Shown: positions 1,817 through 50,524, numbered from the stretch's first letter. The stretch: 52,273 nucleotides of DNA from Smithellaceae bacterium (GCA_050008655.1 JBEKMF010000002.1:1-52273), one strand, 5' to 3'. Notes: generated by a model from the sequence alone, not told the origin. Numbers and translations: made by a program.

Positions 1817-2893
1817 TTAACCATCAGTGAAGAATCTCAACTTACGCCGTATAATCCGCAACCGCTCCCCTATCCACCGTAACGGCGCAGTCAATTTCCA
1901 CGAGAGCGAAGCCGTAATGGCATTTATCTGCACATCACGCTCAGCCATGGCCTGGTTGAGGCTGGCGATCTGCCCATCGCGTTCCAAAATGGCCTGGTTG
2001 ATGATGGAGATCTTCACGTCACGCTCAAAGATGGTCTGGTTGAGGCTGGCGATCTGCTGCTCCGCATGTTGAATCGCCTCGTCGGGTGGTGTAGTTCTTG
2101 CAGACCACGGATTGTAGGTCTGGTCAAAAATCATAGGAGGTTCGTTTGTCGTGGCTTTCAGTCCCTGACACACCAGTTCCATTGAACCTGCGATTACACG
2201 GCGGCCCAGACTATTGTCGGCAGCCGGCGCCTTGCGAACCACGCACATGGAATTAATAAACTCCACTGAATGCACCTGCGACAACGCCACTTCATCAATC
2301 TCACAGCCGTATTTTGTAAAAATGCCACGCAGAATATCGGCTCGCGCCCTGGGTATGCCCCAGTGCTCGTGGTTGATGATGTCGGCAAGGCGTTTGAAGA
2401 AAGAGATCGAGGAGTAGGGATAAAACAGACCGCCCTGAGAATGTTCCCAGTAGCTGCAATGCAAATCCTCGACGATAAAGATGCCACCCCCCACTATCCG
2501 CGGGAAATACAGCGCAAAGGATTTGATTATGTCGCTCGACAGATGAGAACCGTCATCAATAATTATATCGAACTGCGGCGAGCGCTGGAACACCTGCTTA
2601 CAGACATCGGGATTATTGGCATCTCCGACGATGACACCGATGCGTGGATTGTCGAAGCTGAGGCGCGCGCAGTCCGGATTGATGTCGCAACCGATCAAGG
2701 TTGAGGCATTGCGAAAGTACTTTGACCAGATCTCGAGCGAGCCGCCATTCTGTATGCCGATTTCCAGCAAGCATATTGGCTTATCGCGGTAGTAATCGAA
2801 CAAGCGATCGTATTCGGTCAGATACAAGGACCACTTGTCGGACACTTTGCCAGTATGCTCAGCGTACAGCTGATGAAACGTTTTGTTAATCAT
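1817..2893 (-). CDS. Class I SAM-dependent methyltransferase with C-terminal repeat-built coiled coil (WbdD-like position; candidate glycan chain terminator)
   Basis: Track ORF is 1817-2932. I prefer the ATG at 2893 (MINKTFHQLYAEHTGKVSDKW), which overlaps the wzt stop by 8 nt. Motifs: LLEIGIQNGGSLEIW (SAM motif I) and IIIDDGSH. The last ~90 aa are 14-residue (two-heptad) repeats IASLNQ..ERD.Q followed by SWKLTAPLRW. It lies immediately downstream of wzm-wzt. Confidence 0.8.
   Translation of the reverse strand: MINKTFHQLYAEHTGKVSDKWSLYLTEYDRLFDYYRDKPICLLEIGIQNGGSLEIWSKYFRNASTLIGCDINPDCARLSFDNPRIGVIVGDANNPDVCKQVFQRSPQFDIIIDDGSHLSSDIIKSFALYFPRIVGGGIFIVEDLHCSYWEHSQGGLFYPYSSISFFKRLADIINHEHWGIPRARADILRGIFTKYGCEIDEVALSQVHSVEFINSMCVVRKAPAADNSLGRRVIAGSMELVCQGLKATTNEPPMIFDQTYNPWSARTTPPDEAIQHAEQQIASLNQTIFERDVKISIINQAILERDGQIASLNQAMAERDVQINAITASLSWKLTAPLRWIGERLRIIRRKLRFFTDG
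1928..2053 (-). repeat. Three tandem 42-nt coding repeats (14-aa coiled-coil units) inside the methyltransferase gene
   Basis: Units on the plus strand: 1928-1969 ctgcacatcacgctcagccatggcctggttgaggctggcgat; 1970-2011 ctgcccatcgcgttccaaaatggcctggttgatgatggagat; 2012-2053 cttcacgtcacgctcaaagatggtctggttgaggctggcgat. A more degenerate unit lies at 1886-1927. They encode IASLNQAMAERDVQ / ISIINQAILERDGQ / IASLNQTIFERDVK. Confidence 0.7.
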
Positions 2894-4238
2894 GGATAAC
2901 CTCAAGCGAAACCTTCTCAAAGGGAATGCCAACGAGTCCGTATCGAACCTTGCTGGAGCTAACAGTGATAATCAGCGCGTTGTGCATCCAGTGGTGCTGA
3001 ACGTTTTCATTTGGAATCCCGTCTGCGACTGAAGCCATCAATGCATATTGCCCATTGGGCAGCATAGGCAACCTGAATTCGAAGACGCCCTCGAATGTCA
3101 TGCCCGCCCCAATAGGTGTCGGCACGCGATTGGTAAAGGGCAGCGTATTTTCACCGAACAAAGGCTGTCCCAGACGGTCTCGCAACCAAAAACCAAGTAT
3201 CGGTCTTGGAAGCGGTTCAAGAGCCTTGGCGCGTATTGTCAAGCGCACACGCTCGCCGCCTTCAAATAAGCCTTCTTGTCCGGGGGACAAGTGCGTAAGA
3301 GAAATGGAAACGATCTCGGCCTTGCCAGTTTTCCAGCCCTTGGCCGCATTGATGTTGTCGCGTACTGAAGCGACAGCGGCATAATTGATTACTGGTGGTG
3401 ATGCCGTCTCTGGAATGGGCTCATCACTCATAGTAGTAGGCGATATCGAAGTTAGCTTTGCTTCGCTGCCGTACATCTCCTGCTGTGTGTACTGAAAATA
3501 CGCTTCCGTGATACTCTTTGCCGTGCCGGACTGCTCAATCCTGCCATTCTTGAGCCAGATAGCGGTCTTGCAGAGGTTTTGAACCGCTGCAATGTCGTGG
3601 CTGACAAAGATCAATGTACCATTCTCCTGAAAGATGCGGATAAAGCGCATGCATTTCTGTGTGAACACGGCATCACCGACGGACAGCGCTTCATCGACCA
3701 CCAAAATATCTGCGTTCACATGTGCAATCACCGCAAAAGCCAGCCGCACATACATACCACTGGAGTAGGTCTTGACTGGATGCTCAATGAACTGCCCAAT
3801 ATCGGCAAAAGCGGCAATATCGTCAAAGCGTGCGTCAATCTCCTCTTTGGCAAGTCCCAGGATAGAAGCATTCATATACACATTCTCCCGCCCGGTGAAC
3901 TCGGGGTTGAATCCGGAACCAAGTTCCAGCAGTGCCGCGATGTGTCCATTGGTTTGAATGCTGCCGCTGGTTGGGTTAAGCGTGCCGCAAATCATTTGCA
4001 GCAGCGTGGATTTACCCGAACCGTTGCTTCCGATTATGCCGACCGTTTCGCCTTTCTTCACTTCAAAAGAGACATCATTAAGCGCCCAAAACTCGCGGAA
4101 GTATTGCTGTGGAGACTGTCCGAAAAGCCTTTGCAGGCGTGGATTGACAAATTGTTTGAGCCGGTCACGGGGGGCATTATAAATCTCATAACATTTACCC
4201 AGATTGCTGACTCGTACGGCAACATCATTAGAGGACAT
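2886..4238 (-). CDS. wzt: O-antigen/teichoic-acid-type ABC exporter ATP-binding protein Wzt with C-terminal extension (putative glycan-terminus-binding domain)
   Basis: Walker A GSNGSGKST, signature YSSGMYVRL, Walker B ILVVDEAL. About 200 aa follow the NBD (VSISLTHLSPGQEG ... GVFEFRLPMLPNGQYALMASV), as in Wzt proteins that carry a beta-sandwich carbohydrate-binding domain. Start taken at ATG 4238 (MSSNDVAVRVSNLGKCYEIY); the track ORF extends to 4373, deep inside wzm. Confidence 0.9.
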   Translation of the reverse strand: MSSNDVAVRVSNLGKCYEIYNAPRDRLKQFVNPRLQRLFGQSPQQYFREFWALNDVSFEVKKGETVGIIGSNGSGKSTLLQMICGTLNPTSGSIQTNGHIAALLELGSGFNPEFTGRENVYMNASILGLAKEEIDARFDDIAAFADIGQFIEHPVKTYSSGMYVRLAFAVIAHVNADILVVDEALSVGDAVFTQKCMRFIRIFQENGTLIFVSHDIAAVQNLCKTAIWLKNGRIEQSGTAKSITEAYFQYTQQEMYGSEAKLTSISPTTMSDEPIPETASPPVINYAAVASVRDNINAAKGWKTGKAEIVSISLTHLSPGQEGLFEGGERVRLTIRAKALEPLPRPILGFWLRDRLGQPLFGENTLPFTNRVPTPIGAGMTFEGVFEFRLPMLPNGQYALMASVADGIPNENVQHHWMHNALIITVSSSKVRYGLVGIPFEKVSLEVIHD

Positions 4239-5064
4239 CAGCAAATCCCTTTCTGGTCTTCTGGAACCAAACATAGCCCAGCCAGACCACTCCCCAAGCC
4301 ACAATGCTATAGATGCCCAGTCCCGCCCAATCAGGGAGATGTCCCCAGATAAGTACTTCACGAGCCTGTTCAATAATGAAGGTGAGAGGATTGGCCATAA
4401 TCCAGGGGCGCAATGCTGCCGGCAACGCTGTCACCGGATAAAAGATGGGGGAAGCAAACATCATCACCATAGTGATAATGCCTGTGGTTTGACCTAAATC
4501 ACGAAGGAATACACCCAGCGATGCCAGTATCCAGGCAAAACCAAGAGTAAGGATAATAAGCGGTAACAACGCTAAGGGGATAAATATTATCGTCCAATTC
4601 AGGTAACCGTTAAATAGTGCAAAAGCAATCAGCAGCACACCAAGGCTCACGAGGCTGTGGAATAGAGCTGCGCCTATAGCAACTGCCGGTAAAATATCCA
4701 GCGGGAATACTACTTTTTTAACAAAATTTACGTTGGAGGTAATTAGCGTCGGTGCGCGGTTGATCACCTCGGCAAATAGGCTATGGACGATCATGCCCAC
4801 AAACAACACAATGGCAAACTGTGTTTTAGTCTCATCAGTACTTATACCCCAGCGGGCCTTGAAAACAACTGAGAACACAAATGTATAGATGGTAAGCATG
4901 ATCAAGGGATTGAAAAATGACCAGGCGATACCCAGCACCGAGCCCTTGTAGCGACCGACTACTTCGCGCCTGGTCATTTGCGCGATGAGTTGGCGGTTGC
5001 GCCAGAGACTACGCAACAGGGACATCGGCGACGTTGGTTGCCTGGCATGAGGATTTACTTGCAC
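4228..5064 (-). CDS. wzm: ABC-2 type polysaccharide exporter permease Wzm
   Basis: 278 aa with multiple hydrophobic segments. N-terminus is typical of ABC-2 permeases: LLRSLWRNRQLIAQMTRREVVGRYKGSVLGIAWSFFNPL. GTG start at 5064 is preceded by GAGGTG 5 nt upstream. 11-nt overlap with wzt. Confidence 0.9.
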   Translation of the reverse strand: MQVNPHARQPTSPMSLLRSLWRNRQLIAQMTRREVVGRYKGSVLGIAWSFFNPLIMLTIYTFVFSVVFKARWGISTDETKTQFAIVLFVGMIVHSLFAEVINRAPTLITSNVNFVKKVVFPLDILPAVAIGAALFHSLVSLGVLLIAFALFNGYLNWTIIFIPLALLPLIILTLGFAWILASLGVFLRDLGQTTGIITMVMMFASPIFYPVTALPAALRPWIMANPLTFIIEQAREVLIWGHLPDWAGLGIYSIVAWGVVWLGYVWFQKTRKGFADVL

Positions 5065-5485
5065 TCGAGCACCTCTATATTACCTGTTGGTTTGATCATG
5101 TTAAAAACTAACATTATTTAAGTGCTTTTTACAAGCCGAAGGATTTTGAAATATTTTTAAAGATCATGACTGATCAGAAACAAAGCCCCTCCTCGATTTT
5201 TTCGCGGCATCCCGTACCTTGGGAACGGCCATGTTTTCAAGACATTCACTGCGGCCGCTTCTGTGCATTTCCCATACGATTAAACATTTCTGCATTTGTG
5301 AAACTCCAATTTCCATAACGCAGTGCAGGGAAATTGGTAAGTTGAACAATCCCGCACAGCGGAGGGTATGATAGCAAGAAGCTTGTTGCGAAACTGATTT
5401 TCAAAGTTTGCCTTTGGTTTCATACCCGCGATTTTCTACCTAAAAAAAGCTTTTATTGAATAAAGAATACTTTTAGGGCGTCTGA

Positions 5486-7390
5486 TTAGCGCCTGATAAT
5501 TTCACGCTCCCTCAGCATGTTCATAATACAGGCAACGCTGTCTTCTACGCTCTGTACATCTGTGTTCAACAAAATTTCTGGGTTATCCGGCGCTTCATAC
5601 GGTGATGATACGCCGGTAAAATTTTTAATTTCTCCACGAATGGCCTTCTTATATAGCCCATTGGGATCGCGCCGTTTGCACACATCCAGATCGCAGGATA
5701 CGTAGATTTCAAAAAACCGTCCTTCGGGAATTAGTAAACGGGCAGTGGCTCTGTCTTTGGCAAAAGGAGAAATAAATGTGCAAATGACCAAATGCCCGGA
5801 TTCGAAAAACAGCCTCGCCACCTGAGCAGCCCTGTGGATATTTTCTTCTCGATCTTTTCCGGAGAATCCAAGATTCGCGCTTAGGCCATGGCGAAGCTGA
5901 TCCCCGTCCAAAAGCATGGTTTGGCAACCGGATTGAAAAAGTGTTTCTTCCAGAGCCATGGCGATGGTTGATTTTCCGGCGCCGGATAATCCGGTAAGCC
6001 AGAAAACCGCGGCTTTGTGCTGGTTGCGGGCTTCCCGGGCCTGACGATCAATGTTCCAATCCCGCCAAACCGTGTGTGGAGATTTGTCCTGCTTGGATGA
6101 TATATTCTTATCTCTCGGAACAATATCACCGATTGTTCGAAATAGACCACGGATCATGCCTGCTGCTACGGTGTGATGCGTCAGGGGATCGATGAGAATA
6201 AAACAGCCGGTACCACGGTTAATTTTATAAGGATCACAAAAGATCGGCGCTGTCGCTTGAAGCTCGATCCGGCCGATATCGTTGAGAGAGAGGGATTCTG
6301 TCTGATGGCGATGGAGATTGTTCACATCCACCTGATAAACGACCCTGGAAACAAAAGCTTTAACCATCCTTGTTGTATGCTGCAAAAGATACGGCTTGTT
6401 GAGGGACAGGGGAGCATCGTCCATCCAGCAGATCATGCCCTCAAAGCTCGTTCCAACCTGGGGAAGATTATTTTTCCTGACGATCATATCGCCCCGGCTG
6501 ACGTCAACCTCGTCTTCGAGAGTCAATATAACAGATTGCGGGGCAAACGCTTCTGCTAGTTCTCCATCATAGGTTACTACAGAGCGCACCCGCGTCGTTT
6601 TCCCCGAGGGAAGAACGACAATCTCCTCTCCCGGGCTCAGAGTACCGGAAACAATCTTGCCGGCAAAGCCCCGGAAATCCTGATGCGGCCGAATAACATA
6701 CTGGACAGGAAAACGGAAGTCCACCAGGTTACGGTCGGCGGAAACATGCACATTCTCCAGATAATGAAGCAAAGTGCCGCCTTCATACCAGGGCATGTTA
6801 GAGCTTTTTCCTACTACATTATCGCCTTTAAGAGCGGAAACAGGAATGAAGACAATATCATGAATATCCAGTTTTTCGGAAAAATCCGTATATTGCTTAA
6901 CGATTTGGTTATAAACATTTTCCGAATATTCCACCAGATCCATCTTGTTTATGGCCACAACCAAATGGGGAATCCGCAGCAGCGATACAATGAATCCGTG
7001 ACGCTTGGATTGGGTAAGCACGCCGTTGCGGGCGTCGATGAGAATAATGGCGCAGTCGGCTGTTGAAGCCCCGCTGATCATATTCCTGGTATATTGAACA
7101 TGGCCGGGACTGTCCGTAATAATGAACTTTCTTGAAGATGTCTCGAAATAGCGATGGGCAACATCAATCGTAATTCCCTGTTCCCGCTCCGCCGACAATC
7201 CATCCAAAAGGAGCGCTAAGTCAGCTTCGGCCAGTCCCTTTTTGCGCGAGGTTTTTTCTATAGCGGCATACTGATCTTCGAAAATGGCCTTTGTTTCGTA
7301 CAGCAGCCGCCCGAGCAGCGTTGACTTGCCATCGTCCACACTACCGGTTGTTGCAAAACGCAGCAGGGTTTTTTCCTTGGCTGTTGTCAA
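5486..7390 (-). CDS. cysNC: Bifunctional sulfate adenylyltransferase subunit 1 (GTPase) / adenylylsulfate (APS) kinase
   Basis: GTPase motifs GSVDDGKST, DSPGH and NKMD in the first ~430 aa. C-terminal APS-kinase domain with P-loop GLSGAGKST. ATGA overlap with cysD (7387-7390). Confidence 0.93.
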   Translation of the reverse strand: MTTAKEKTLLRFATTGSVDDGKSTLLGRLLYETKAIFEDQYAAIEKTSRKKGLAEADLALLLDGLSAEREQGITIDVAHRYFETSSRKFIITDSPGHVQYTRNMISGASTADCAIILIDARNGVLTQSKRHGFIVSLLRIPHLVVAINKMDLVEYSENVYNQIVKQYTDFSEKLDIHDIVFIPVSALKGDNVVGKSSNMPWYEGGTLLHYLENVHVSADRNLVDFRFPVQYVIRPHQDFRGFAGKIVSGTLSPGEEIVVLPSGKTTRVRSVVTYDGELAEAFAPQSVILTLEDEVDVSRGDMIVRKNNLPQVGTSFEGMICWMDDAPLSLNKPYLLQHTTRMVKAFVSRVVYQVDVNNLHRHQTESLSLNDIGRIELQATAPIFCDPYKINRGTGCFILIDPLTHHTVAAGMIRGLFRTIGDIVPRDKNISSKQDKSPHTVWRDWNIDRQAREARNQHKAAVFWLTGLSGAGKSTIAMALEETLFQSGCQTMLLDGDQLRHGLSANLGFSGKDREENIHRAAQVARLFFESGHLVICTFISPFAKDRATARLLIPEGRFFEIYVSCDLDVCKRRDPNGLYKKAIRGEIKNFTGVSSPYEAPDNPEILLNTDVQSVEDSVACIMNMLREREIIRR

Positions 7391-8313
7391 AAATATCCCT
7401 CTTTCTTTTTTTGTTCCATGGAGGCATCGCCGGTTAAATCGATTACACGGTTTTCCCGCTCGGACTTTTTGGCCATGATAACTTCCGCAATGATCTCGTC
7501 AATGCTCGTCGCTGTCGAAGCAATAGCTCCGGTGCAAGGAATGCATCCCAGGCTGCGGAAACGGCAGCGCACTGTTTCCACCGGTTCGTTCCCTGTATGA
7601 CCAGCAGAATGTTTGTCCTTCACCAACGATGCCGTAAGCGGAATCAGAATACCGTTACGCCGGACCACCTTTCGCTCCAGGGCAAAATAGATAGGCACAA
7701 CCGGTATATTTTCCAGTTTGATGTACTGCCAGATATCCTTTTCCGTCCAGTTACTGAGTGGAAAGACTCGCACCGTTTCTCCTTCATTAATACAGGTGTT
7801 GTATAGATCCCAGACCTCCGGCCGCTGATTCTTCGGATCCCACTGACCGAAGGCATCCCGCAGGGAAAAAACGCGCTCCTTGGCTCGTGATTTTTCTTCT
7901 TCTCTTCTGGCTCCGCCGATGGCCGCATCGAAGCCGTGCTTTTTTATGGCTGAAAGCAATGCTCCGGTCTTGAGATAGCTGCAGCATTTATCAACGCCCG
8001 TCTTCAGGGGATGACAACCTTTGGCAATCCATTCCTCGTTGCGCTCCACAATCAGCCGGAGATCCGACTTTTTACAGAAAGCATCACGGAAGGCGTACAT
8101 TTCCGGAAACTTGAAGCCTGTATCCACATGCATCAGGGGAAAGGGAATTTTGCCGGGATAAAAAGCCTTCAGCGCCAGGTGCACCAGCACGCTGGAGTCT
8201 TTACCTGCGGAGTAGAGCAAAACAGGATTCTTAAATTCTGCTGCTGATTCCCGCAGAATATAGATTGATTCCGATTCAAGCTGCTTCAGATAAGGCATAC
8301 TGTAAGAAGACAT
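7387..8313 (-). CDS. cysD: Sulfate adenylyltransferase subunit 2
   Basis: 308 aa, PP-loop SAGKDSSV, typical CysD length. Its ATG shares one base with the pstB stop (TGATG at 8315-8311). Confidence 0.93.
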   Translation of the reverse strand: MSSYSMPYLKQLESESIYILRESAAEFKNPVLLYSAGKDSSVLVHLALKAFYPGKIPFPLMHVDTGFKFPEMYAFRDAFCKKSDLRLIVERNEEWIAKGCHPLKTGVDKCCSYLKTGALLSAIKKHGFDAAIGGARREEEKSRAKERVFSLRDAFGQWDPKNQRPEVWDLYNTCINEGETVRVFPLSNWTEKDIWQYIKLENIPVVPIYFALERKVVRRNGILIPLTASLVKDKHSAGHTGNEPVETVRCRFRSLGCIPCTGAIASTATSIDEIIAEVIMAKKSERENRVIDLTGDASMEQKKKEGYF

Positions 8314-9110
8314 CAGCTGATTTCTCCTGATATGTAGGCGCGTGTCCGTTCATCTTTCGGGACATTGAGTATATCTTCGGCGGGTCCGTACTCCACCACT
8401 TCACCCATAAACATAAAAACCACATAATCGGCAAGGCGTCTCGCCTGGCGAAGGATATGGGTCACAACAACAATGCTATAGTCCTGCTTTAAGAGCCTAA
8501 ACCGGGATTCTACAATCTTGGCGGAAATTGGATCTAAGGCCGAGGTAGGTTCATCAGCAAGGATAACCTCCGGTTCTACAGCCAGAGTTCTGGCCAACGC
8601 CAGGCGCTGCAACTGACCAAGGGAAAGTTTCGCTGCAGGACTATGCAAGCGGTCTTTCACCTCGTCCCAGAGACCGGCCAGTTGCAAATAGTGTTCAACA
8701 CAATAATCCATTGTGGATTCTACACTTTGGGAAATTGCCGCTACTGCATTTTCGGGCATTGCCTTGCCCTTTAGTCCGTGAATCTTCGGTCCGAAAGCGA
8801 CATTGTTGTAAATCGACATGGGCAGCGGATAAGGCCGCTGGGAAAGAAATCCGACCTTTTTCCGCAAGGCAAGAATGTCGGCATCCGGATTATAAATATC
8901 TATTCCGTCAATGACGACCGATCCGGTTAGTGTTGCTTCTTCATAGAGATCCAGAAGCCGGTTCATGCTCTTGAGCAATGTCGTTTTTCCACAACCGGAG
9001 GGACCAATAATAGCAACAATCTGACGGTCGGGAATATCGAGGGCGATCTGATTGAGCGCTTGAAAATTGCCGTATTGAACAGATAGATTATGTAATTGTA
9101 TATGGGACAT
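8313..9110 (-). CDS. pstB: PstB-family ABC transporter ATP-binding protein
   Basis: 265 aa. Walker A GPSGCGKTT, signature LSLGQLQRL, Walker B ILADEPTSALD. PstB-like N- and C-termini (NRLLDL; ERTRAYISGEIS). Confidence 0.85.
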   Translation of the reverse strand: MSHIQLHNLSVQYGNFQALNQIALDIPDRQIVAIIGPSGCGKTTLLKSMNRLLDLYEEATLTGSVVIDGIDIYNPDADILALRKKVGFLSQRPYPLPMSIYNNVAFGPKIHGLKGKAMPENAVAAISQSVESTMDYCVEHYLQLAGLWDEVKDRLHSPAAKLSLGQLQRLALARTLAVEPEVILADEPTSALDPISAKIVESRFRLLKQDYSIVVVTHILRQARRLADYVVFMFMGEVVEYGPAEDILNVPKDERTRAYISGEIS

Positions 9111-9121
9111 AATTTAATTCC

Positions 9122-9967
9122 CTAACGAATAACGTGTCTGGAAAAACGTTCACTCAGTATTCTTGCCACAATATTTACCAGAAGGACAATCAAAAGCAAA
9201 ACCAGCGCGGCGGCATAAGCCCGAGCCTGCACTTCCGGGATGGGTGTTCCAATCTGAAAAAAGATGGCCAAGGGTAAAGAAGCAACGGGGTCCAGCAGAG
9301 ATCGCGGCATATTATCGGTGTACCCGGAAGTAAATAGTATTGATGCCGCATCTCCGATAGCCCGACCAAAGGCAAGGATAACAGCCATAACTATACCGGG
9401 AATAACTTGCCTGAAGACGATCCATGCGGTTTCCAACTGCGTCGTGCCCAGGGAGATGGCAATCTCTTTTAATTCTCTGGGAACCATGCGGAGTATCTCT
9501 TCCGTCGAGCGGATCATAATGGGCATCGTTAGGAGGGTCAACACCAAGATTCCTCCCAGGAGAGAGGCACGAAGACCGAAATAGACCATGACCACAAAGC
9601 CCACAGCACCATAAACAATGGATGGGGTTCCCCAAAGTATATCCAGTACGATTCTGCTTATAGCGGCGAGACGGGAACTCGCATATTCTTTCTGCAAGGC
9701 AAAAGCAACCGGCAGACTGAAAAGCAGCGTTAATATAGACGCACCGAAGGCTAGACACAGCGAACCGGCGATAGCATTGGCAATACCTCCTTCACCACCC
9801 AGGTAATATCCTCCTTTCGGTGCATCGATAAGCATGGAGACAGTGAGCGCGGAAGCCCCCCTGAATAATATTACCAGGACAACGTAAGCAAGCAAACCCA
9901 GCAGTAGAATCAAGGAAAGCTGCATCAGCCTCTTAAAAAACATTTCTTGCTGTTTACGATTTAACAT
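9122..9967 (-). CDS. pstA: PstA-family ABC transporter permease
   Basis: 281 aa polytopic membrane protein with an EAA-like loop (SLGTTQLETAWIVFRQVIPG). Directly abuts pstC (stop 9968-9970, ATG 9967). Confidence 0.85.
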   Translation of the reverse strand: MLNRKQQEMFFKRLMQLSLILLLGLLAYVVLVILFRGASALTVSMLIDAPKGGYYLGGEGGIANAIAGSLCLAFGASILTLLFSLPVAFALQKEYASSRLAAISRIVLDILWGTPSIVYGAVGFVVMVYFGLRASLLGGILVLTLLTMPIMIRSTEEILRMVPRELKEIAISLGTTQLETAWIVFRQVIPGIVMAVILAFGRAIGDAASILFTSGYTDNMPRSLLDPVASLPLAIFFQIGTPIPEVQARAYAAALVLLLIVLLVNIVARILSERFSRHVIR

Positions 9968-10867
9968 TTAAAAAGAATACCTCCTGTGCATCCGGGAAAG
10001 GATTACATGAGCAGCAAAGCTGAATCCCGCGACTATAACCATGAGGATTAAAGCAGCAAACATCAGGGCCGAGTCGTATTTCGGAATCGACATCATCTCT
10101 CCATAGTTGTTGGCAATCAGAGCCGGTAAAGGATAGACGGGGTCAAGCAGATGACCGGGAATTTTGGCAACGTTGCCCGCTACCATCATAACGGCCATCG
10201 TTTCGCCAATGGCCCTGGCTAAACCAAGGACAACGGCGGCAATAATGCCGGGCCATGCCGTTTTCAACAGGACGTGTCCAATAACCTCCCATCTGGTAGC
10301 ACCCAAAGAAAGGGCGCTTTCTCTTACCTCCTGAGGAACGTTTGTCAGCACTTCAATAGACAAAGAGATGATAAAAGGGCTCACCATCAAGGCCAGGATA
10401 ACACCTGCAGCCAGAAGGCTATAGCCGGTGCTCGGCCTGCCGGTCACTTCGCCCAATAGCCGGACCGCCGGCACAATCGTCAATACACCAAAGAGTCCGA
10501 AAATCACAGAAGGAATGCCGGCCAGAATATCGATCGACAAACGAAGCCATTTGCGCAGGCGATGGTTCATGTATTCCGTAATATAAACGGCGCTCATCAA
10601 ACAAACCGGTAAAGCAAAGACCATGGCCAGGAACGTGACAGCAAGCGAACCCGCAATGAAAGGTAAGAAACCGAATTGTCCTTGTTGAGGATGCCAGACA
10701 GAGGAGAACAGCAGTTGTCCTAAAGATATTGAGCACAGAAGCGGTGCGGCTTTGACCGCGATAATGACCAGAATCAGAAACGCAATCCCGTAAAGCAGAA
10801 AAAGGGTACAGCGGATGAAAACACCGGCGCCGGCGCTTTTTATCTTTCTGTAAGTAAGCTTTTTCAG
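9968..10867 (-). CDS. pstC: PstC-family ABC transporter permease (start uncertain, probably non-canonical)
   Basis: Track ORF begins at ATG 10624. The same frame is open for 81 more codons up to 10867 and encodes a PstC-like first TM and loop (LKKLTYRKIKSAGAGVFIRCTLFLLYGIAFLILVIIAVKAAPLL...WHPQQGQFGFLPFIAGSLAVTFLA). That stretch contains no ATG/GTG/TTG. A CTG at 10867-10865 overlaps the pstS stop (CTGA). Confidence 0.75.
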   Translation of the reverse strand: MKKLTYRKIKSAGAGVFIRCTLFLLYGIAFLILVIIAVKAAPLLCSISLGQLLFSSVWHPQQGQFGFLPFIAGSLAVTFLAMVFALPVCLMSAVYITEYMNHRLRKWLRLSIDILAGIPSVIFGLFGVLTIVPAVRLLGEVTGRPSTGYSLLAAGVILALMVSPFIISLSIEVLTNVPQEVRESALSLGATRWEVIGHVLLKTAWPGIIAAVVLGLARAIGETMAVMMVAGNVAKIPGHLLDPVYPLPALIANNYGEMMSIPKYDSALMFAALILMVIVAGFSFAAHVILSRMHRRYSF

Positions 10868-11835
10868 TTTTTTACCTTCGTGATGGCTTCCTGAATTTGT
10901 GTATCAGAGAGTTTGATGTAACCTATTTCGTCCACGAACCGCTGTCCATCATTCAATATCCACAGAACAAAATTCCGCACTGGCCCGGAAAATTGTCCCT
11001 TGACAACAATATTCAGGTCTCGCGCCGGAGGTGAAGGGTAGAGCCCTTTGCGGACTGCCTGAATTGCTTTTTCTTTGGTGCTCAAATCTTCTTCGGGATC
11101 AACTCGTCCATTTTCGCTGATATCGATGGGAATAATTCGGATACCTTTCTGCGGCAGTCCCGTTTTTATATCATAAGCATAGTTCAGATTATTATATCCG
11201 ATGCCCAATTTATCATTTTTGACCGCCTCTGTAACGCCGGGATCTCCATAAACTCCTACGCCTTGGAGCTCTTCCTGATGTTTTCCCAGATAAGCCGCCC
11301 ATGTTTCCGCAGCCCCACATGAATCGGAGCGTGTGTAAAGATTAACAGCATCACCATTTGTGCCACTTGTTAATTGTCCCCAGGTGAACGTTTTGCCCTC
11401 GATCCACAGAGCGATGAATTGCTTTTTTGTAAGCCCCTTAAACATTATCTCCCGCAGGATGGGGTTGCTGGCATTCATGACCGGGAAAACAGCGTCTTTG
11501 ACCACCGGAACATATTTTGCCCCTCGCTGTAATTCTTCCGGTTTAATATTCCGCGAGACCATGCCGATATCCACCAGACCTGTAAGGACTTCAGCGACTC
11601 CTTTGCCGGCGCCACCCGCAGCAATATCGATCTTGCAGCCGGGATGAGTCTTTTGATATTCGTCAGCCCAGCGAATCATCATGGGGTAGAGCGCCCAGGC
11701 CCCCGATATGCGAATGGTACATGGAGAACTGGTTTTTTTATTATCTTTATCGCCACTCTGTCCACAAGCACAGAAGGTAAGTAAAATCACCATGAGAACA
11801 GTGCGACTCAATAATGTATTTTTTAAAAGGTGCAA
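10864..11835 (-). CDS. pstS: PstS-family periplasmic substrate-binding (lipo)protein
   Basis: 323 aa. Signal peptide with Cys-containing end (LLTFCACGQSG). PBP type-2 features ISGAWALYP, AAGGAGKGV, VDIGMVSRNIKPEE resemble the PstS family. Confidence 0.8.
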   Translation of the reverse strand: MHLLKNTLLSRTVLMVILLTFCACGQSGDKDNKKTSSPCTIRISGAWALYPMMIRWADEYQKTHPGCKIDIAAGGAGKGVAEVLTGLVDIGMVSRNIKPEELQRGAKYVPVVKDAVFPVMNASNPILREIMFKGLTKKQFIALWIEGKTFTWGQLTSGTNGDAVNLYTRSDSCGAAETWAAYLGKHQEELQGVGVYGDPGVTEAVKNDKLGIGYNNLNYAYDIKTGLPQKGIRIIPIDISENGRVDPEEDLSTKEKAIQAVRKGLYPSPPARDLNIVVKGQFSGPVRNFVLWILNDGQRFVDEIGYIKLSDTQIQEAITKVKN

Positions 11836-11894
11836 TTTTTATTAAATTCTCCTTAATATGCGTTATCATTATCCCTTTCATCTAATCACAAATG

Positions 11895-13439
11895 CTACGA
11901 TGGCAGACGTGTATTTTTAGCCCTGAGATCATACAAATAAACGGCCGCGCCGGGAACATCGAATTCATCAATCTTATTGCCAATCTTGTTTAGATAAACA
12001 AGGTAATACATCTTTTCATCTACCTTACCCCAATTATAATTATGCGAAAAGACAAACCATACCCTGGCATTGCCTCTCAGCGTATCGATATCTTTCAAAT
12101 ATTTTTCTGGTTCACTTCTTGCGCTAACCCCTACGCGGAAATCACTGCCTTTAAATCCGTAGAAAGGAGCGTAATATAGAAAAGCGGGTTTAGCGCCATA
12201 GTAGAGATAAACTATATCGGTTGATCGTTTATTATGGTTTACATACTCCACAATTGGCCGAATATGCTCATGCATATCCGGATTTTTTAACCCGTTTATT
12301 GCACTGACGACAAGCTGAGCTAATAATAGCAAAGTCAATGCAGCGGTGGCAAAAGACGCCACAAACTGGTTGTAATTTGCCAGAGTGCTGCGAATTCTCT
12401 CGATCCCTTCCGCTATTAAGAGAAATATGATGGGTACAAGAAAGAGTATTAATCGTCCAACAAAAGGGTACTTTCTAAGCCCTGAAGCAACCAGCGTTGT
12501 TATAATTGTTAAGATCAAGACAAGTCCGATAGTCCACTTCCGCAGCAAAACAGATATCAACCCGATAAGTAAGAGAACAGCGCTGATAGAAACAAACGGA
12601 AGCTCCAAGTCTTTCTCAAATAAGTTTATCAGGGTATTACTAAACCAGCTCCAATTACACCAGGGAGGCATGGGCATAAAACTTTGGGCCCAATAAGCAG
12701 TTAGCGCATTGTTTGCTGCTGTAAAACGCAGGGAAATAAAATAGAGAAATGTAAAACTTGTCAACCATAGCAGTAAAATAAGCCCCGACCATAAGAGACC
12801 CGGCCAATCTTTCCTGAAAAGCTGTCGCGCCGCCAATGTAATGCCGATACCGGCCATGACGAACACAGAAGGGTGAGACATCCACATCGCAACAAGTCCG
12901 GCTACCGTCAACAATATATAGTTTTTTGGGCTTGGCGCGGTATCCTCCAGGCAGGGATAGGCAGTAAGTAGCAAAACGAGAGTTAGCATTACATCACTAG
13001 CGTACTGCTTGTTTTCCGATGAATAGTAAATCAAGGTTGACGAAAGGCAAAATAACGCCAGAGCAATATAAACCGCTGTTCCCTGAAGATACTTTTTTGC
13101 CGCTTTATACATCAGGAACAAAGACAGGATTCCCACCATCAAAGGGAAAAGCCTCAGCGTAAATTCGCTGTTACCCAGAACAATAATAATAGTTTTCTGA
13201 ATGAAGAGGAATGCCAATGGCGCTGTCTGATTATAGTCCAGCGGTTGCGTTAGACCGGCAAAGGAACGGTGGATGAGATTGAGGGCAAGAGAGCATTCGT
13301 CCAGCCAGAGAGAGCGATTGGCCGCATATTGCCACATTCTCAAAATAATACCGATAACCAAAAGACAGATAGCTAACAGCAACTCCGGTTTTATCCGCTT
13401 AGGTAATCCAGCAGGTGTAATATCAGAAATAATTTTCAA
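11895..13439 (-). CDS. GT-C fold membrane glycosyltransferase, ArnT/PMT (GT39/GT83)-like
   Basis: 514 aa with many TM segments. Early-loop acidic motif SLWLDECSLALN, then SEFTLRLFPLMVGILSLFLMYKAAKKYL, typical of ArnT-like enzymes. C-terminal soluble domain. Confidence 0.72.
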   Translation of the reverse strand: MKIISDITPAGLPKRIKPELLLAICLLVIGIILRMWQYAANRSLWLDECSLALNLIHRSFAGLTQPLDYNQTAPLAFLFIQKTIIIVLGNSEFTLRLFPLMVGILSLFLMYKAAKKYLQGTAVYIALALFCLSSTLIYYSSENKQYASDVMLTLVLLLTAYPCLEDTAPSPKNYILLTVAGLVAMWMSHPSVFVMAGIGITLAARQLFRKDWPGLLWSGLILLLWLTSFTFLYFISLRFTAANNALTAYWAQSFMPMPPWCNWSWFSNTLINLFEKDLELPFVSISAVLLLIGLISVLLRKWTIGLVLILTIITTLVASGLRKYPFVGRLILFLVPIIFLLIAEGIERIRSTLANYNQFVASFATAALTLLLLAQLVVSAINGLKNPDMHEHIRPIVEYVNHNKRSTDIVYLYYGAKPAFLYYAPFYGFKGSDFRVGVSARSEPEKYLKDIDTLRGNARVWFVFSHNYNWGKVDEKMYYLVYLNKIGNKIDEFDVPGAAVYLYDLRAKNTRLPS

Positions 13440-13486
13440 TTTTTAAATGTCTCCGAAAACGCCCTTTTTTTAATCACCACTGGAAT

Positions 13487-14482
13487 TTACTGTTTTGCAA
13501 ATGTATCTTTATGCCATGTTTTTGTCTTCTGCCATGTCCAGGCTGTCTGAATTATCTCCTCCAGGCCGGGATATTGTGACTTCCAACCCAGGATATTTCT
13601 TGCTTTATCCGCATCCCCGATAAGAATGTCGGCATCGCCGGGACGCCGGTCTTTTTCTACAACAACAATGGGCCTGCCGGTCACCAACCGCGCCGTCTCG
13701 ATGACTTCTCTCACTGAATACCCTCGCGTATTGGCAAGATTAAAGACATCCGATACATCGCGCTTTTGAACGTGTTGCAGAGCAAGGATGTGCGCCGCCG
13801 CCAGATCATTCACATGGACGTAATCGCGAATACACGTACCGTCGGGGGTATCATAATCCGTCCCGTAAATATTGATGCAATCCCGCATCCCCGCCGCAGC
13901 CTGCAGGACAAGCGGAACGAGATGCGTTTCAGGATTGTGCCACTCTCCAATGAGACCAAACGGATCGGCTCCCGCCGCATTGAAATAACGGAGGCTAGCA
14001 TAACGGATACCGTATGCTGTATCATAATCTTCCAGGATTTTCTCTACCATAAACTTTGATTTACCATAAGGCGTCAACGGCTGTTGCGGCTGATCCTCCG
14101 CGATCGGCTTACGTGAATGTGGTTGATAAATAGCGCAACTGGAAGAAAAAATGAAATACTTCACTTTGTATTCTGCCATGACATCCAGAAGATTCAGTGT
14201 GTTGAGGACGTTGTTGCGGTAATATTTGGAAGGATGTTGAACAGACTCACCGACTTCAATCAAAGCCCCATAATGCATAACGGCGTCAATGTGGTAGTTG
14301 CTGAAACAATTCCTCAGGCTATCCTTATCCGCCAGATCACCCTGCACAAAATTTCCCCACTGGACTAATTCGCGGTGCCCTCGCGAAAGACTATCATAGA
14401 CAATTGTTTCATAACCCATGCTGTTGAGCATCTTGTTCGCATGGGATCCTATATATCCGGCCCCTCCTGCAAGTAAAATCAT
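13487..14482 (-). CDS. galE: UDP-glucose (or UDP-hexose) 4-epimerase
   Basis: 331 aa. Rossmann motif GGAGYIGSH and catalytic PYGKSK (YxxxK). Strong SD GAGGGGGAG upstream of the ATG. Confidence 0.9.
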   Translation of the reverse strand: MILLAGGAGYIGSHANKMLNSMGYETIVYDSLSRGHRELVQWGNFVQGDLADKDSLRNCFSNYHIDAVMHYGALIEVGESVQHPSKYYRNNVLNTLNLLDVMAEYKVKYFIFSSSCAIYQPHSRKPIAEDQPQQPLTPYGKSKFMVEKILEDYDTAYGIRYASLRYFNAAGADPFGLIGEWHNPETHLVPLVLQAAAGMRDCINIYGTDYDTPDGTCIRDYVHVNDLAAAHILALQHVQKRDVSDVFNLANTRGYSVREVIETARLVTGRPIVVVEKDRRPGDADILIGDADKARNILGWKSQYPGLEEIIQTAWTWQKTKTWHKDTFAKQ

Positions 14483-14635
14483 ATACTCCCCCTCATTAAC
14501 TTAACCCGAATCAAAAGCTTGTTTCTAAATCATTATACCACCGGCAAAAGCTCCTGTGTCGCTGCTGCTTATCTTCCATTACTTGTTTTCTGGCACAACA
14601 AAAAAGTGCACTATTTCGCTATTAAGATGAAAAAA

Positions 14636-16114
14636 TTATTTTATCGAAGATATCTTCTTAGCAACCCATCGGAAAGGTTGTCCCAACCAAACCATATCCT
14701 GTGACGTCAGACAAGCAAACAGATAACAGCCGACGGTCAGAGTGATAAAAGCACCCAATAGTGCTATCAACGGACCAACGGTATGCAGAACGTAAAAAAT
14801 CACTATAGCCGACAGCGCCGTCAGTCCCGGCTTTATCAGGGATGTGCGCAAATCCATTGCCAGGTGACCACGCAAAAAAACGATCAAGAATAACGTTGTT
14901 AGCATCATCCCCGTACCCGCGCTCCAGAGCGCGCCTACGGCACCATACCTCAAAATTGCTTTCGAAATAGTCAAAGAAAAAAACACCGCGCCGGCCAATG
15001 CGCAAAACAATACCTGAAAATCAAGTTTTCTGGCCATCAGAACTCTCACCGCCGCATTAGCGGCCGTCCACGGAATCATGAGCCACAGTACAGGCCCTAT
15101 TAGAGTTCCGGCCTCAGTGTAGCGATTGCCAAAGATTTGAACCGTCAGCCAGGGACCGAGAGCCGTACCCAGCAGAGCCAGGAGGGTTCCGAAAAGCAGA
15201 GAAAACCGAAGAACCGTTTCCGCGAAAACATAATCCTTTCCGTCACCTCTTTCCGCTGCTCGGCTGAGAACCGGGAGGGAAACGCTGCCCAGTGCAAACG
15301 GGATTTGGGAAAGCATGAAAAGAACCTGCATAGCCAGCGCCAGCTGCCCCAGAGAATCGCCGGCAGAAGCCAAGTGCCGAAAGAATATCAAAGGGCCCTG
15401 ATACGGTAAAGCCATCAAAAGCATGGCCGCGCCTAGGGGAAGACCCTGAAGGAAAATCCGGCGCAGATCCGAAAAATTTCTATCCAGCCGTAAAGGAAAC
15501 ACCCGGCGGTGAATGAGCGCCAAGCCATAGAAGGCCTGGAAACACCAGACGAGTCCGTGGATCACGACTATTAAGAGAGCTTTCCGCCAAACAATGACAA
15601 TCAAAAGGCCAAGGACGACTTCCAGCGGTCGAAAGATGGCCTGCTGTCGGAAAGAATACTCGTTGACCTCATATGCCGTATAAACATTTTCCGTCCACAA
15701 AGCCAGTGAGCGCCCGATGAGCGCGAAGGAGAAAACAAACACCATTAAACGGGACGCCGGATCGTCCTCGATAAACCAGGAAAGAATAACATAAGCCGCA
15801 GTTGCCAAAGTGATGGACGCTATCCGCAGCGTGAGGGTAAGCGCCGCCGTCCGGTCGCCCACCTGCCGGTTTTTACCCGCATCTCTACTCAGAACGACTT
15901 CCAGTCCCATTCTGGTCAGAGGCAAAAATAACAGATACCAGGCGATTCCGTAATTGATTATCCCATAGACCTGGGGACCCAAAGCTCTGGCTAGAATGAC
16001 GGCATAGAGGAAGCGCGTCACAAAGTACACGCCGTACCCTCCCAGCAGGTAAGTTAAATTCCTGGCGATGGAGGCAACGCCCCTGCCATCAATAGCGGGT
16101 GCTAGCCCGGACAA
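14636..16114 (-). CDS. MOP-superfamily oligosaccharide/polysaccharide flippase (Wzx-like)
   Basis: 492 aa with about 12-14 hydrophobic segments. N-terminus IARNLTYLLGGYGVYFVTRFLYAVILARALGPQVYG is typical of Polysacc_synt-type flippases. Confidence 0.75.
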   Translation of the reverse strand: MSGLAPAIDGRGVASIARNLTYLLGGYGVYFVTRFLYAVILARALGPQVYGIINYGIAWYLLFLPLTRMGLEVVLSRDAGKNRQVGDRTAALTLTLRIASITLATAAYVILSWFIEDDPASRLMVFVFSFALIGRSLALWTENVYTAYEVNEYSFRQQAIFRPLEVVLGLLIVIVWRKALLIVVIHGLVWCFQAFYGLALIHRRVFPLRLDRNFSDLRRIFLQGLPLGAAMLLMALPYQGPLIFFRHLASAGDSLGQLALAMQVLFMLSQIPFALGSVSLPVLSRAAERGDGKDYVFAETVLRFSLLFGTLLALLGTALGPWLTVQIFGNRYTEAGTLIGPVLWLMIPWTAANAAVRVLMARKLDFQVLFCALAGAVFFSLTISKAILRYGAVGALWSAGTGMMLTTLFLIVFLRGHLAMDLRTSLIKPGLTALSAIVIFYVLHTVGPLIALLGAFITLTVGCYLFACLTSQDMVWLGQPFRWVAKKISSIK

Positions 16115-16152
16115 TCAACAATACCCTCATTTCCTGAAATCATTCCGCATGA

Positions 16153-16920
16153 TCATTTGCATGATATTTTCTGAAATAATAAATGGATTTTCCCGATTAA
16201 GCGTTTTTGGATCGTCGAGAAAAAATTAAAGATGTATTGCTTATGGAACATATTCAAAGCGCTACACCGATAAACGCCGTTATTCAGTTGAATGATAGCG
16301 GTACCACTCCCTAGCCACGGGAAATCAAGCACTTGATAACCACTGTTGCGCACGTCACTGATGGTCTTCCAGAATGTGATATTATAGTATTCATAAGGTT
16401 TGGTATCATGAAAAGTGATAATGCCTCGCGAGGACATCAAGCTCTTATAATTTTTAAAATCTTCCAGGCTGCCGCTATAAGAATGGTCGCCGTCAATATG
16501 CAGATAATCTATTTTCCACGCTTTTGTTGCGCTGTGCTTGAAAACATTCGATGATCCGTCGATGATAATTTCAATGTCGTTATAGTGATTTCGAAAGAAC
16601 GACGCTTGATCGGTCCAGTCCGGGCGGCTCCATTCTCCCGCATCGGCATCAATCAGAACGGTTCTGGCATTTACCAGACCTAAATCCCTTTGAGCTTGCC
16701 GCATCAGGCGTGGCACAAAACCGCCACCAGAACCGATACAAACGCACAATTTCGCGCGCAGCATATAAGCTATTGTATAATAGAGCAGACCCGCGCCTAA
16801 GAATCCGGCATTTGGATCGGCGCCATGCGAATCGGCCCAGGGAGCACCTTTTAAAAGATAAGACGTGATGATGTCGCGGTTGAGCAGGCCACTTTTGTCG
16901 GGATCTATTTTTTGTGTCAT
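16153..16920 (-). CDS. Class I SAM-dependent methyltransferase
   Basis: 255 aa. CVCIGSGGGFVPR (motif I-like) and IDYLHIDGDHSYSGSLEDF, the same HIDG.H motif as in the left-edge fusion protein. ATGA overlap with the upstream gene (16917-16920). Confidence 0.7.
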   Translation of the reverse strand: MTQKIDPDKSGLLNRDIITSYLLKGAPWADSHGADPNAGFLGAGLLYYTIAYMLRAKLCVCIGSGGGFVPRLMRQAQRDLGLVNARTVLIDADAGEWSRPDWTDQASFFRNHYNDIEIIIDGSSNVFKHSATKAWKIDYLHIDGDHSYSGSLEDFKNYKSLMSSRGIITFHDTKPYEYYNITFWKTISDVRNSGYQVLDFPWLGSGTAIIQLNNGVYRCSALNMFHKQYIFNFFSTIQKRLIGKIHLLFQKISCK

Positions 16921-17552
16921 ATCATACGGTCTTTCAATATTTTGATCATAATATTTCTGCTGACCCTGTTGAATAAATTCACATAAACATAATAACGTAG
17001 GGGCTTCGCGTTTATTTTTTCTTTAAATTTCATCGCCGAAGTATTAAATTTTTCCGAAATGCTGTAAATTCTGTTTCGCCACATACTTTCAAGATAAGTA
17101 TACAGAATTGTTCTTAGAAACGGGGCGATATTTCGCCCCCGCATATGTCTTGCGGTACGAAAATTAAATGAGTAAGCTTCATTGTTTTTGAGTTCAAACG
17201 ATAAATACTCATAATTGCATCTCTTCAGATCAAACCAGCCATAAGCCAGAATCGCCCCCTCGCTTTTCAAACCAATGCATGAGCAGCCGGCATTCCACAG
17301 TCTTGAAAAATCTGCCGGCGTTTCAGACAGATTCTCCAATCCTTTAAGCAGTTCGACATCGCTTTGACCCAGCAAAATCGTTTCAAAAGGTTCATCCAGC
17401 AGCGGCTTGATGTCCGTACTCAGAAAATTTTTTGACTCTTCAAAAAGATAATAGGGAACAATTTTTATTCCCAACCGGGATAACCAGCGCAAAATGGTTG
17501 CGATTATCAATCCATGCGACCAAGCATGAAGGACTTTTGTCTTGGTATTCAT
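16917..17552 (-). CDS. Hypothetical protein, possibly GNAT-fold acyltransferase
   Basis: 211 aa. MRGRNIAPFLRTILYTYLE resembles the GNAT R/Q-x-x-G-x-A/G acetyl-CoA loop. Assignment is by eye only. Confidence 0.4.
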   Translation of the reverse strand: MNTKTKVLHAWSHGLIIATILRWLSRLGIKIVPYYLFEESKNFLSTDIKPLLDEPFETILLGQSDVELLKGLENLSETPADFSRLWNAGCSCIGLKSEGAILAYGWFDLKRCNYEYLSFELKNNEAYSFNFRTARHMRGRNIAPFLRTILYTYLESMWRNRIYSISEKFNTSAMKFKEKINAKPLRYYVYVNLFNRVSRNIMIKILKDRMI

Positions 17553-17591
17553 TTCTGTTTTAAACCGACACTGGAATGCCCTAAATGCCGC

Positions 17592-18515: not shown

Positions 18516-18520
18516 ATTAT

Positions 18521-19669: not shown

Positions 19670-19797
19670 GGCTTGAAATCCCTTTCGGTCATAGATGTCA
19701 GTCTAATGGCGATACGACTGTTGGTGCAGGCCAGTGCTTGTGTCAGAAATTTACTTCCGTAACAAATCGGCAGGATAACACTGAACTTTGGTGTCAA
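19666..19797 (-). pseudogene. 43-codon ORF that looks like the retained 5' end of a GT2 glycosyltransferase gene
   Basis: Below the track size cutoff. AAGGAG (19809-19804) lies 6 nt before the TTG at 19797. Translation is MTPKFSVILPICYGSKFLTQALACTNS RIAIRLTSMTERDFKP. The first ~27 aa match the canonical GT2 N-terminus pattern (P.(V/F)SVI(L/I)P.YN....L..AL.S), then similarity is lost. The stop overlaps the next ATG as ATGA (19669-19666). Confidence 0.4.
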
Positions 19798-19821
19798 TTG
19801 AATCTCCTTAAACACGCATCA

Positions 19822-21884: not shown

Positions 21885-21917
21885 CCGACATCCTAAATAC
21901 ATAGGAATAATATATTC

Positions 21918-44428: not shown

Positions 44429-44712
44429 TTTTCTTATTTAGACGCGCATTACAATGTATTTGCACGACCTTTATAAGAAAATTGCCGCCATCTCCAGGAC
44501 CGCCGCTTCGATAGGAAAACCATATCTTGTAACCTGCTTCTATATTTCCCATAACAGTGGGTCTGGAAAATGCTTGGCCTCTTCCAGGTTTGCAAGTAAC
44601 AGCCAAACCTTCACGATTCCAGTTATGTCCATCTCCGACGAAGCGTAGTTTATAACAGGCATCTCTCCGTTACCGGCATTCCAAGCTGTCGTTGAGCCAT
44701 ACCACATGCTGT

Positions 44713-47034: not shown

Positions 47035-47056
47035 AACCTAGGCTTTAAAAACCATG

Positions 47057-48004: not shown

Positions 48005-48129
48005 GTTTGCCAATATTTCTAAATGTTCCCATATCAAAAAAAATATAGTTATTCAGGGCTAGCATATTGATATAATAGCATATATACACTGACTTGTGGA
48101 TGTTTTTTGCTAACTTTTCCCTAAGTTCT

Positions 48130-49266: not shown

Positions 49267-49369
49267 AGAGACAACTCTTTTAATATAACATATTTGTTGT
49301 GGAGAATCATTGACTGACCTATTTGACAAACGGCTTCTTTTATTACACCACCGGATTAAAATTAGTTCA

Positions 49370-50512: not shown

Positions 50513-50524
50513 TGAATAGCCGAT

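Follow-up and report, generated by a model that had tools for sequence, protein, structure and literature searches.

A Pst-derived ABC importer encoded with CysD-CysNC as a candidate sulfate transporter of a Smithellaceae polysaccharide locus

The DNA analysed here is a stretch of 52,273 nucleotides from a Smithellaceae bacterium (GCA_050008655.1, JBEKMF010000002.1:1-52273; hereafter, the window), and our subject is a block of six genes at positions 5486-11835 that encodes an ATP-binding cassette (ABC) importer of the Pst (phosphate) lineage together with the sulfate-activating enzymes CysD and CysNC. Judging from the sequence, we consider it probable that this Pst-derived importer carries sulfate and supplies CysD-CysNC with it for the synthesis of 3'-phosphoadenosine 5'-phosphosulfate (PAPS), which would in turn be used by the sulfotransferases of the same locus. 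We also lean toward a broader view, namely that the four-gene cassette (binding protein, PstC, PstA, PstB) represents a sixth family of prokaryotic sulfate importers beside SulT, SulP, CysP/PiT, DASS and CysZ/TSUP. Such a family would have originated from S-type Pst systems by loss of their proton-accepting hydroxyls, would extend over at least 574 mostly anaerobic bacterial and archaeal species, and would give these organisms high-affinity access to sulfate where peat, wetlands and sediments are poor in it; we consider this broader view, taken as a whole, somewhat more likely than not. Reviews recognize five families of sulfate transporters, none of them derived from Pst (PMC5840216), and we found no prior description of a Pst-type sulfate transporter in open-access papers and bioRxiv.

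Subunit assignment and ligand site of the binding protein

The family of each subunit was scored with NCBIfam models, using their curated cutoffs, and with Pfam, while the structure of the binding protein was assessed with an AlphaFold2 (AF2) model searched by Foldseek against the PDB. For every subunit, the PstS, PstC, PstA and PstB models far outranked those of CysP, CysT, CysW and CysA, and Pfam agreed, which bears out the original prediction that the importer is Pst-like throughout and not CysPTWA-like. The PstC-like permease (9968..10867, minus strand, 299 aa, CTG start) passes the cutoff of TIGR02138 (249.8 vs. 196.45 bits), the PstA-like permease (9122..9967, minus strand, 281 aa, ATG start) falls just under that of TIGR00974 (177.8 vs. 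193.45 bits), and the PstB-like ABC ATPase (8313..9110, minus strand, 265 aa) stays below that of TIGR00972 (306.2 vs. 343.2 bits). The CysT/CysW models reach 37-51 bits on the permeases vs. 120-250 bits for the Pst models, and the sulfate CysA models only 117-128 bits on the ATPase. The substrate-binding lipoprotein (10864..11835, minus strand, 323 aa, TTG start, with the predicted lipobox Cys at residue 24) matches PF12849, scores below the cutoffs of both TIGR02136 (PstS; 105.7 vs. 206.6 bits) and TIGR00975 (66.1 vs. 205 bits), and gave no SBP_bac_11 or TIGR00971 match in the Pfam and NCBIfam scans. That is, the phosphate equivalog cutoffs are missed by the binding protein, PstA and PstB, which we count in favor of sulfate. 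The AF2 model of the binding protein has a mean pLDDT (the predicted local distance difference test) of 88.8, and its 40 best PDB matches are all PstS phosphate-binding proteins.

In E. coli PstCA, the anion site of the pore is made of PstC Arg237 (held by Glu241), PstA Arg220 and main-chain groups (PMC12976172). These permease residues are kept here: PstC Arg237/Glu241 correspond to R218/E222, and PstA Arg220 is conserved, with Glu224 replaced by Asp. A PstCA-like site with so few contacts should accept any small tetrahedral oxyanion and, therefore, specificity would rest with the binding protein. The pore residues were also considered as a specificity marker and dropped, since residues conserved in this way have no discriminating power.

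The ligand site was read against the closest solved relative of the binding protein, C. perfringens PBP-1 (4Q8R/4GD5), to which it aligns without gaps at E = 2.7e-16. In PBP-1, phosphate is bound by the backbone NH groups of T12, S13, S41, G130 and T131 and by Arg125, and the hydroxyl ligands are S11, T12, S41, S59, S129 and T131 (PMC5381212). The window protein carries the substitutions S11 to A46, T12 to W47, S13 to A48, S41 to A76, S129 to C173 and T131 to A175, and retains S59 (as S94), R125 (as R169) and G130 (as G174); five of the six ligand hydroxyls are thus absent and Ser94 is the only one left. The Arg169-Asp171 pair, equivalent to R135-D137 of E. coli, is retained as well. A recent (2026) study divides PstS proteins into a D-type, in which an Asp provides a low-barrier hydrogen bond, and an S-type, whose proton acceptors are T17 and T148 in SphX, equivalent to PBP-1 S13 and T131; the T17A mutant of SphX abolishes binding of inorganic phosphate (Pi) and T148A strongly reduces it (PMC13614923). 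At the position of E. coli Asp56 the window protein has Ser94 (via PBP-1 Ser59), as an S-type protein does and a D-type protein does not, and both of the S-type proton-acceptor positions are Ala (A48 and A175).

Helices start at residues 47, 78 and 174 of the AF2 model and, therefore, three helix N-termini converge on the ligand positions. Sbp chooses sulfate and PstS chooses phosphate according to the same principle, in that a site made of hydrogen-bond donors only fits a fully ionised anion. We infer from these substitutions that the window protein has such a donor-only site, which would suit a fully ionised tetrahedral anion such as sulfate. The original prediction had noticed by eye the motifs ISGAWALYP and AAGGAGKG in the binding protein, at places where many PstS proteins have the hydroxyl-rich motifs GS(S/T)T..P and GSG.G, and had thought an altered anion specificity conceivable. 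Both motifs are present; the alignment with crystallised PstS reveals that the phosphate ligands are not conserved and that the acidic Asp56 equivalent, by which PstS was said to reject sulfate, is missing (Ser94). An altered specificity is thus supported by the lost ligand hydroxyls and by the conserved linkage to sulfate activation described below. Trp47 was also considered as an Sbp-like indole donor. Since W, F and Y are about equally common at this position among 50%-identity cluster representatives, donation by the indole NH is probably dispensable, and Trp47 was dropped as an essential donor.

Family distribution and gene neighborhood

The altered site is shared by a large family. A protein search with the binding protein returned more than 7,700 matches at E <= 1e-5, the best 120 of which are all at least 56% identical to it, and in an alignment of 37 homologs down to 56% identity the site residues (A46, W47, A48, A76, S94, R169, D171, C173, G174 and A175) are invariant, lying in the motifs SGAWALYPMM, AGGAGKG, GMVSR and TRSDxCGAxETWA. 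Among 1.84 billion 50%-identity cluster representatives, 169 clusters were matched at E <= 1e-30; 44 of the 97 full-length representatives combine A-[W/F/Y]-A at 46-48 with A175, only 7 of the 97 have Ser/Thr at both acceptor positions, and it is only at about 37-39% identity that these canonical S-type PstS proteins come in. When one genome per species was scanned, at least 574 species proved to carry the family. Its members are publicly annotated as phosphate-binding or generic substrate-binding proteins. Around this core, PstS-like proteins have radiated widely (P0121-P0270); they carry GA[W/F/Y]ALYP with variable second and third motifs, for instance SSTKG with YSK, and may have ligands other than the one bound by the core family.

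For the analysis of gene neighborhood, 80 family loci were fetched from the one-genome-per-species scan by the motifs GAWALYPM and CGAAETWA. These loci come from Syntrophia, Syntrophorhabdia, Anaerolineae, Aminicenantes, KSB1, NC10, Holophaga and Planctomycetota among the bacteria, and also from Bathyarchaeia, anaerobic methanotrophic archaea of group 1 (ANME-1), Methanoperedens and further lineages, and nearly all of them keep the binding protein together with PstC, PstA and PstB as a cassette. Sixty-one loci, with at least 2.5 kb of downstream sequence, were informative, and in 24 of these CysD/CysN, CysC or Sat is encoded within 4 kb of the cassette; some sulfur-linked neighbor is found in 58 of the 80. 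On the tree of the binding protein, the associations with sulfate activation sit in separate clades, with Syntrophia-type bacteria, NC10 and Holophaga linked to CysDNC, ANME-1 to CysDN, and Planctomycetota and Bathyarchaeia to Sat, so that the linkage involves two non-homologous ATP sulfurylases (CysDN and Sat). As controls we used 78 metagenomic loci of the nearest relatives with canonical ligands (GSTTVYP, GGGSGKG, SGT). None of these 78 loci has CysD, CysN, CysC or Sat (Fisher p = 3.6e-6 vs. the family); their neighbors are OmpR-type regulators, kinases, PhoU and phosphoesterases. PhoU, searched by tblastn with queries verified against solved PhoU structures, was found in 10 of the 78 control loci, whereas neither the window nor any of the 80 loci of the family gave a hit. 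The linkage of the cassette to cysD-cysNC is more than chance, being found in many lineages and absent from control Pst loci. The original prediction had named lack of conservation in relatives as the result that would make the juxtaposition fortuitous; instead, the linkage recurs in relatives, archaea included.

Further neighbors point in the same direction. In 27 of 70 loci the gene for an Rrf2 regulator immediately precedes the cassette; the specific model that it matches best is CymR (cysteine metabolism), below cutoff. A TauE neighbor occurs in about six loci, and sulfate uptake has been demonstrated for proteins of the TauE family (PMC11535334). In a Chloroflexi clade (L033, L044, L045, L052, L055, L077), pstB is followed by a second binding protein that is Sbp-like (TIGR00971, 110 bits, below cutoff).

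Some loci show additional arrangements. In the same Chloroflexi loci, genes for a membrane protein resembling Na/Pi cotransporters and for a Usp protein lie downstream of the cassette, and those for a histidine kinase, a response regulator and a protein with an MshEN domain lie upstream. In the Syntrophorhabdus-type loci L007, L010, L011, L017, L021 and L025, a gene of PF01663 (type I phosphodiesterase/nucleotide pyrophosphatase) lies between the pstB-like and cysD-like genes, adjoining a divergent CysD/CysN pair without APS (adenosine 5'-phosphosulfate) kinase. In diderm lineages, outer-membrane barrels are encoded next to the cassette, either upstream (L039, L046, L059, L067, L068, L078) or downstream (L003, L012, L028, L082) of it; they are Porin_O_P-type or AlgE-like (Alginate_exp) and may perhaps form a dedicated outer-membrane anion channel.

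Weighing sulfate against other ligands

In the mechanism that we propose, the cassette would be a type I ABC importer of the Pst lineage whose specificity has switched from phosphate to sulfate. The binding protein would keep Ser94, Arg169-Asp171 and the fold of PstS, with backbone amides contributed by the N-termini of three helices, and would have lost all side chains able to accept the proton of HPO4(2-) along with most of the ligand hydroxyls, leaving hydrogen-bond donors only. Sulfate would then be passed from the binding protein to the PstC/PstA-like pore with its two anion-binding arginines and be imported at the expense of ATP hydrolysis by the PstB-like subunit; the products of the translationally overlapped cysD and cysNC genes would convert it to APS and then PAPS, and two sulfotransferases of the locus would use the PAPS to sulfate a surface glycan.

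Several observations weigh against sulfate as the ligand. No nearby sulfate-activation gene is found in 37 of the 61 informative loci, and 22 of the 80 loci have no sulfur-linked neighbor at all. A histidine kinase with an OmpR-type regulator, or a Porin_O_P barrel, adjoins the cassette in some lineages and could hint at phosphate. Structural likeness to Sbp was looked for and rejected, as no Sbp is among the top 50 Foldseek matches; the likeness is one of logic, not of fold, and even this parallel is only partial, since near relatives have Phe or Tyr in place of Trp47. Finally, conservation of the motifs within the 80-locus set is circular, since the motifs served for retrieval, whereas the homolog search, the 37-homolog alignment and the cluster-representative search are free of this bias.

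Among the alternatives, the one that survives best, unlikely as we consider it, is that the importer carries another fully ionised inorganic oxyanion, such as thiosulfate, sulfite, selenate, molybdate or tungstate. The Ser/Thr-to-Ala changes widen the pocket and lower its polarity, an invariant Cys173 lies at the site, ModA-type proteins are the next structural neighbors after PstS in the Foldseek search, and the porin associated with the cassette has a weak match to ExtI (selenite/tellurite). In addition, tungsten and molybdenum are required by the hosts, which are anaerobes, and ATP sulfurylases also accept selenate and molybdate. However, beside the cassette stand sulfate-activation enzymes and APS kinase, along with a regulator resembling CymR, an Sbp-like protein and TauE, and no molybdenum or tungsten cofactor genes recur there in the family loci; in the window the product would feed sulfotransferases, and CysDN does not use thiosulfate or sulfite.

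That the cassette is simply a divergent, high-affinity S-type Pst importer of phosphate, with the adjacency of cysD-cysNC lacking functional meaning, seems to us quite improbable. This alternative does explain why Pst models give the best match for every subunit, with PstC above its cutoff, why the binding protein has the PstS fold, and why Ser94, Arg169, Asp171 and the pore arginines are retained, and it agrees with the public annotations as phosphate-binding proteins and with the two-component systems or Porin_O_P barrels that stand beside the cassette in some relatives. It is difficult to reconcile with a site that has Ala at the two proton-acceptor positions and lacks five of six ligand hydroxyls, given that T17A alone abolishes Pi binding by SphX, or with the distribution of PhoU and the linkage to CysDN or Sat in separate clades, neither of which follows the control loci. 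The NCBIfam matches of the kinases and regulators are generic and below cutoff, with PnpS, WalK, MtrA and RpaB ranking above PhoR and PhoB, and do not point specifically to PhoR/PhoB. Lastly, an organic anion (a sulfonate, sulfate ester or phosphonate) whose carbon part is held by the aromatic, Ala-rich pocket is the least probable ligand of all, for while the Ala-flanked aromatic W/F/Y at position 47 is conserved across the wide PstS-like radiation, TauE stands beside the cassette in some loci and the binding of beta-glycerophosphate by SphX indicates that S-type sites can be promiscuous, CysDN and Sat require free sulfate, the pore retains a small two-arginine anion site, and genes for sulfatases, desulfonating enzymes or C-P lyase do not recur beside the cassette in the family loci.

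The gene block, its host locus and known systems

All genes across the window are on the minus strand, and open reading frame calls place the six genes of the block contiguously at the coordinates originally predicted, with CysD, the small subunit of sulfate adenylyltransferase, at 7387..8313 (minus strand, ATG start) and CysNC, a fusion of the GTPase subunit of sulfate adenylyltransferase with APS kinase, at 5486..7390 (minus strand, 634 aa, TTG start). Stop and start codons overlap or abut at four of the five junctions, and re-reading of the sequence returned three of the four predicted junction motifs exactly as they had been described: CTGA at 10867-10864, where the stop of the binding-protein gene overlaps the CTG of pstC; TAAATG at 9970-9965, where the ATG of pstA abuts the stop codon of pstC; and TGATG at 8315-8311, where the ATG of cysD overlaps the stop codon of pstB. 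The fourth, between cysD and cysNC at 7390-7387, had been given as ATGA and actually reads TTGA, the start codon of cysNC being TTG, which is still a 4-nt overlap. The pstA and pstB genes are separated by an 11-nt spacer, without overlap.

The CTG start of pstC deserves comment. The frame opens at 10870 and, because it has no ATG, GTG or TTG before 10624, the CTG at 10867 is the sole start that gives a full-length PstC; it has a Shine-Dalgarno sequence, GAAGGT, 5 nt upstream. The junction reads TTGA in the closest ortholog (L001) and ATGA in L002, L041 and L042, these three being one Smithellaceae genome and two archaeal loci; therefore, the overlap of the binding-protein gene with pstC is a conserved feature. 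L001 has TTG where the window has CTG, a TTG-to-CTG change at the start codon (10865-10867), and the source assembly and the window agree on this CTG.

From the junction overlaps we infer that the six genes are probably co-transcribed. No public RNA runs with the window sequence were found, the matches being only to DNA metagenomes of peat, wetland and sediment, and a run match identifies a peat metagenome as the origin of the sequence. A promoter/terminator scan of 4900-12100 yielded terminator-like sites at the frequency expected from shuffled sequence, none of them convincing inside the block, an outcome that speaks neither for nor against an operon. The only long intergenic stretch in that part of the locus is a non-coding gap of 420 nt (5065-5485) from the cysNC stop to the start of wzm, and it contains no convincing terminator.

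Around the block extends a very large locus for polysaccharide biosynthesis, with Wzm/Wzt, two Wzx-type flippases, many glycosyltransferases, epimerases, methyltransferases and a priming sugar transferase. CysD passes TIGR02039 (448 bits, cutoff 396.6) and CysNC passes NF004035, the model of bifunctional CysN/APS kinase (906.9 bits, cutoff 715), with the APS-kinase domain (PF01583) at residues 460-608. The fusion makes PAPS, and its product therefore fits a locus that bears sulfotransferases, as the original prediction had it: two tandem sulfotransferase genes (20940-21902 and 21918-22886, both minus strand), each matching PF13469 and PF00685, lie about 9 kb upstream of the block and are presumed to be the consumers of PAPS. 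No gene of reductive sulfate assimilation was seen within the window.

Other features of the locus are worth recording. A radical S-adenosylmethionine (SAM)/SPASM gene (19822-20943, minus strand) shares 4 nt with the end of the first sulfotransferase gene. Among NCBIfam models it comes closest to a tungsten-cofactor oxidoreductase maturase (118 bits vs. a cutoff of 380), and it therefore counts as a SPASM enzyme without assignment within the sulfation module. A 773-aa protein (44713-47034, minus strand) fuses an N-terminal ATP-grasp domain to a KamA-like radical SAM domain of the lysine/glutamate 2,3-aminomutase type, a combination that suggests decoration of the glycan with a beta-amino acid. 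A pair of thiamine pyrophosphate (TPP)-dependent E1 alpha/beta genes and an aldo-keto reductase gene (34173-37788, minus strand) lie beside the gene of the priming sugar transferase (Bac_transf), which is unusual in a polysaccharide locus. There are two export routes (2886-5064, 14636-16114 and 40131-41660), namely the Wzm/Wzt exporter, whose Wzt carries a C-terminal glycan-binding domain, and the two Wzx-type flippases, and these suggest two glycans or a composite locus. GC content goes from about 0.45-0.51 at 2000-20000 to 0.33-0.38 at 44000-52273, which is compatible with a glycan locus that is partly mosaic or partly of horizontal origin.

The locus points to a self-contained module for sulfate uptake, PAPS synthesis and glycan sulfation in an uncultured Smithellaceae-type bacterium of peat. 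If the sulfate assignment is true, metagenomic proteins labelled as phosphate-binding would be mis-assigned, and inferences on phosphorus and sulfur cycling in wetlands and sediments would be distorted accordingly. The cassette would also fill a gap in syntrophs, Chloroflexi, Bathyarchaeia and ANME-1, namely how sulfate for assimilation or sulfation enters the cell; surveys of how ANME and methanogens metabolize sulfur list the sulfate transporter only as "putative" (PMC6286981). Further, it would represent a natural conversion of a phosphate site to a sulfate site by a few Ser/Thr-to-Ala changes, useful both for the engineering of anion selectivity and for its understanding.

Elements of this proposed system have precedents. 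With E. coli PstSCAB (9K3S/9K3X; PMC12976172) the window cassette shares a binding protein, two different permeases, a PstB-type ATPase and the gene order, as well as PstC Arg237/Glu241 and PstA Arg220; it differs in that its binding protein lacks Asp56 and the hydroxyl ligands, in that the binding protein, PstA and PstB stay below their NCBIfam cutoffs, and in being linked to sulfate activation with no phoU downstream. The S-type PstS proteins (PBP-1, 4Q8R, and SphX) are the closest solved relatives, with target-normalised TM-scores of 0.85-0.86, and likewise have Ser at the Asp56-equivalent position and the Arg, whereas in the window protein S13/T17 has become A48, T131/T148 has become A175, and S11, T12, S41 and S129 have become A, W, A and C. 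With SulT (Sbp/CysP-CysTWA) the cassette would share ATP-driven, binding-protein-dependent uptake of sulfate for assimilation and a donor-only logic of selectivity, known for Sbp and proposed here for the window protein, but its lineage is PF12849 and not SBP_bac_11, its CysT/CysW/CysA scores are far lower, and the fold search did not bring up Sbp. The precedent cited in the original prediction, CysP of Bacillus subtilis, belongs to a family of phosphate transporters but transports sulfate, and its gene adjoins those of sulfate activation (PMC5840216, PMC11535334); it is, however, a PiT secondary carrier, not an ABC system, and has no homology to any subunit of the window. On the side of sulfate activation, the window shares with CysDNC/NodPQ-type systems the pairing of CysD with a CysN-APS-kinase fusion in a sulfation context. 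In rhizobial NodPQ-NodH and mycobacterial CysDNC, this pair makes PAPS for sulfotransferases rather than for reduction, whereas in the window the PAPS genes lie in one overlapping block with a Pst-derived importer of their own.

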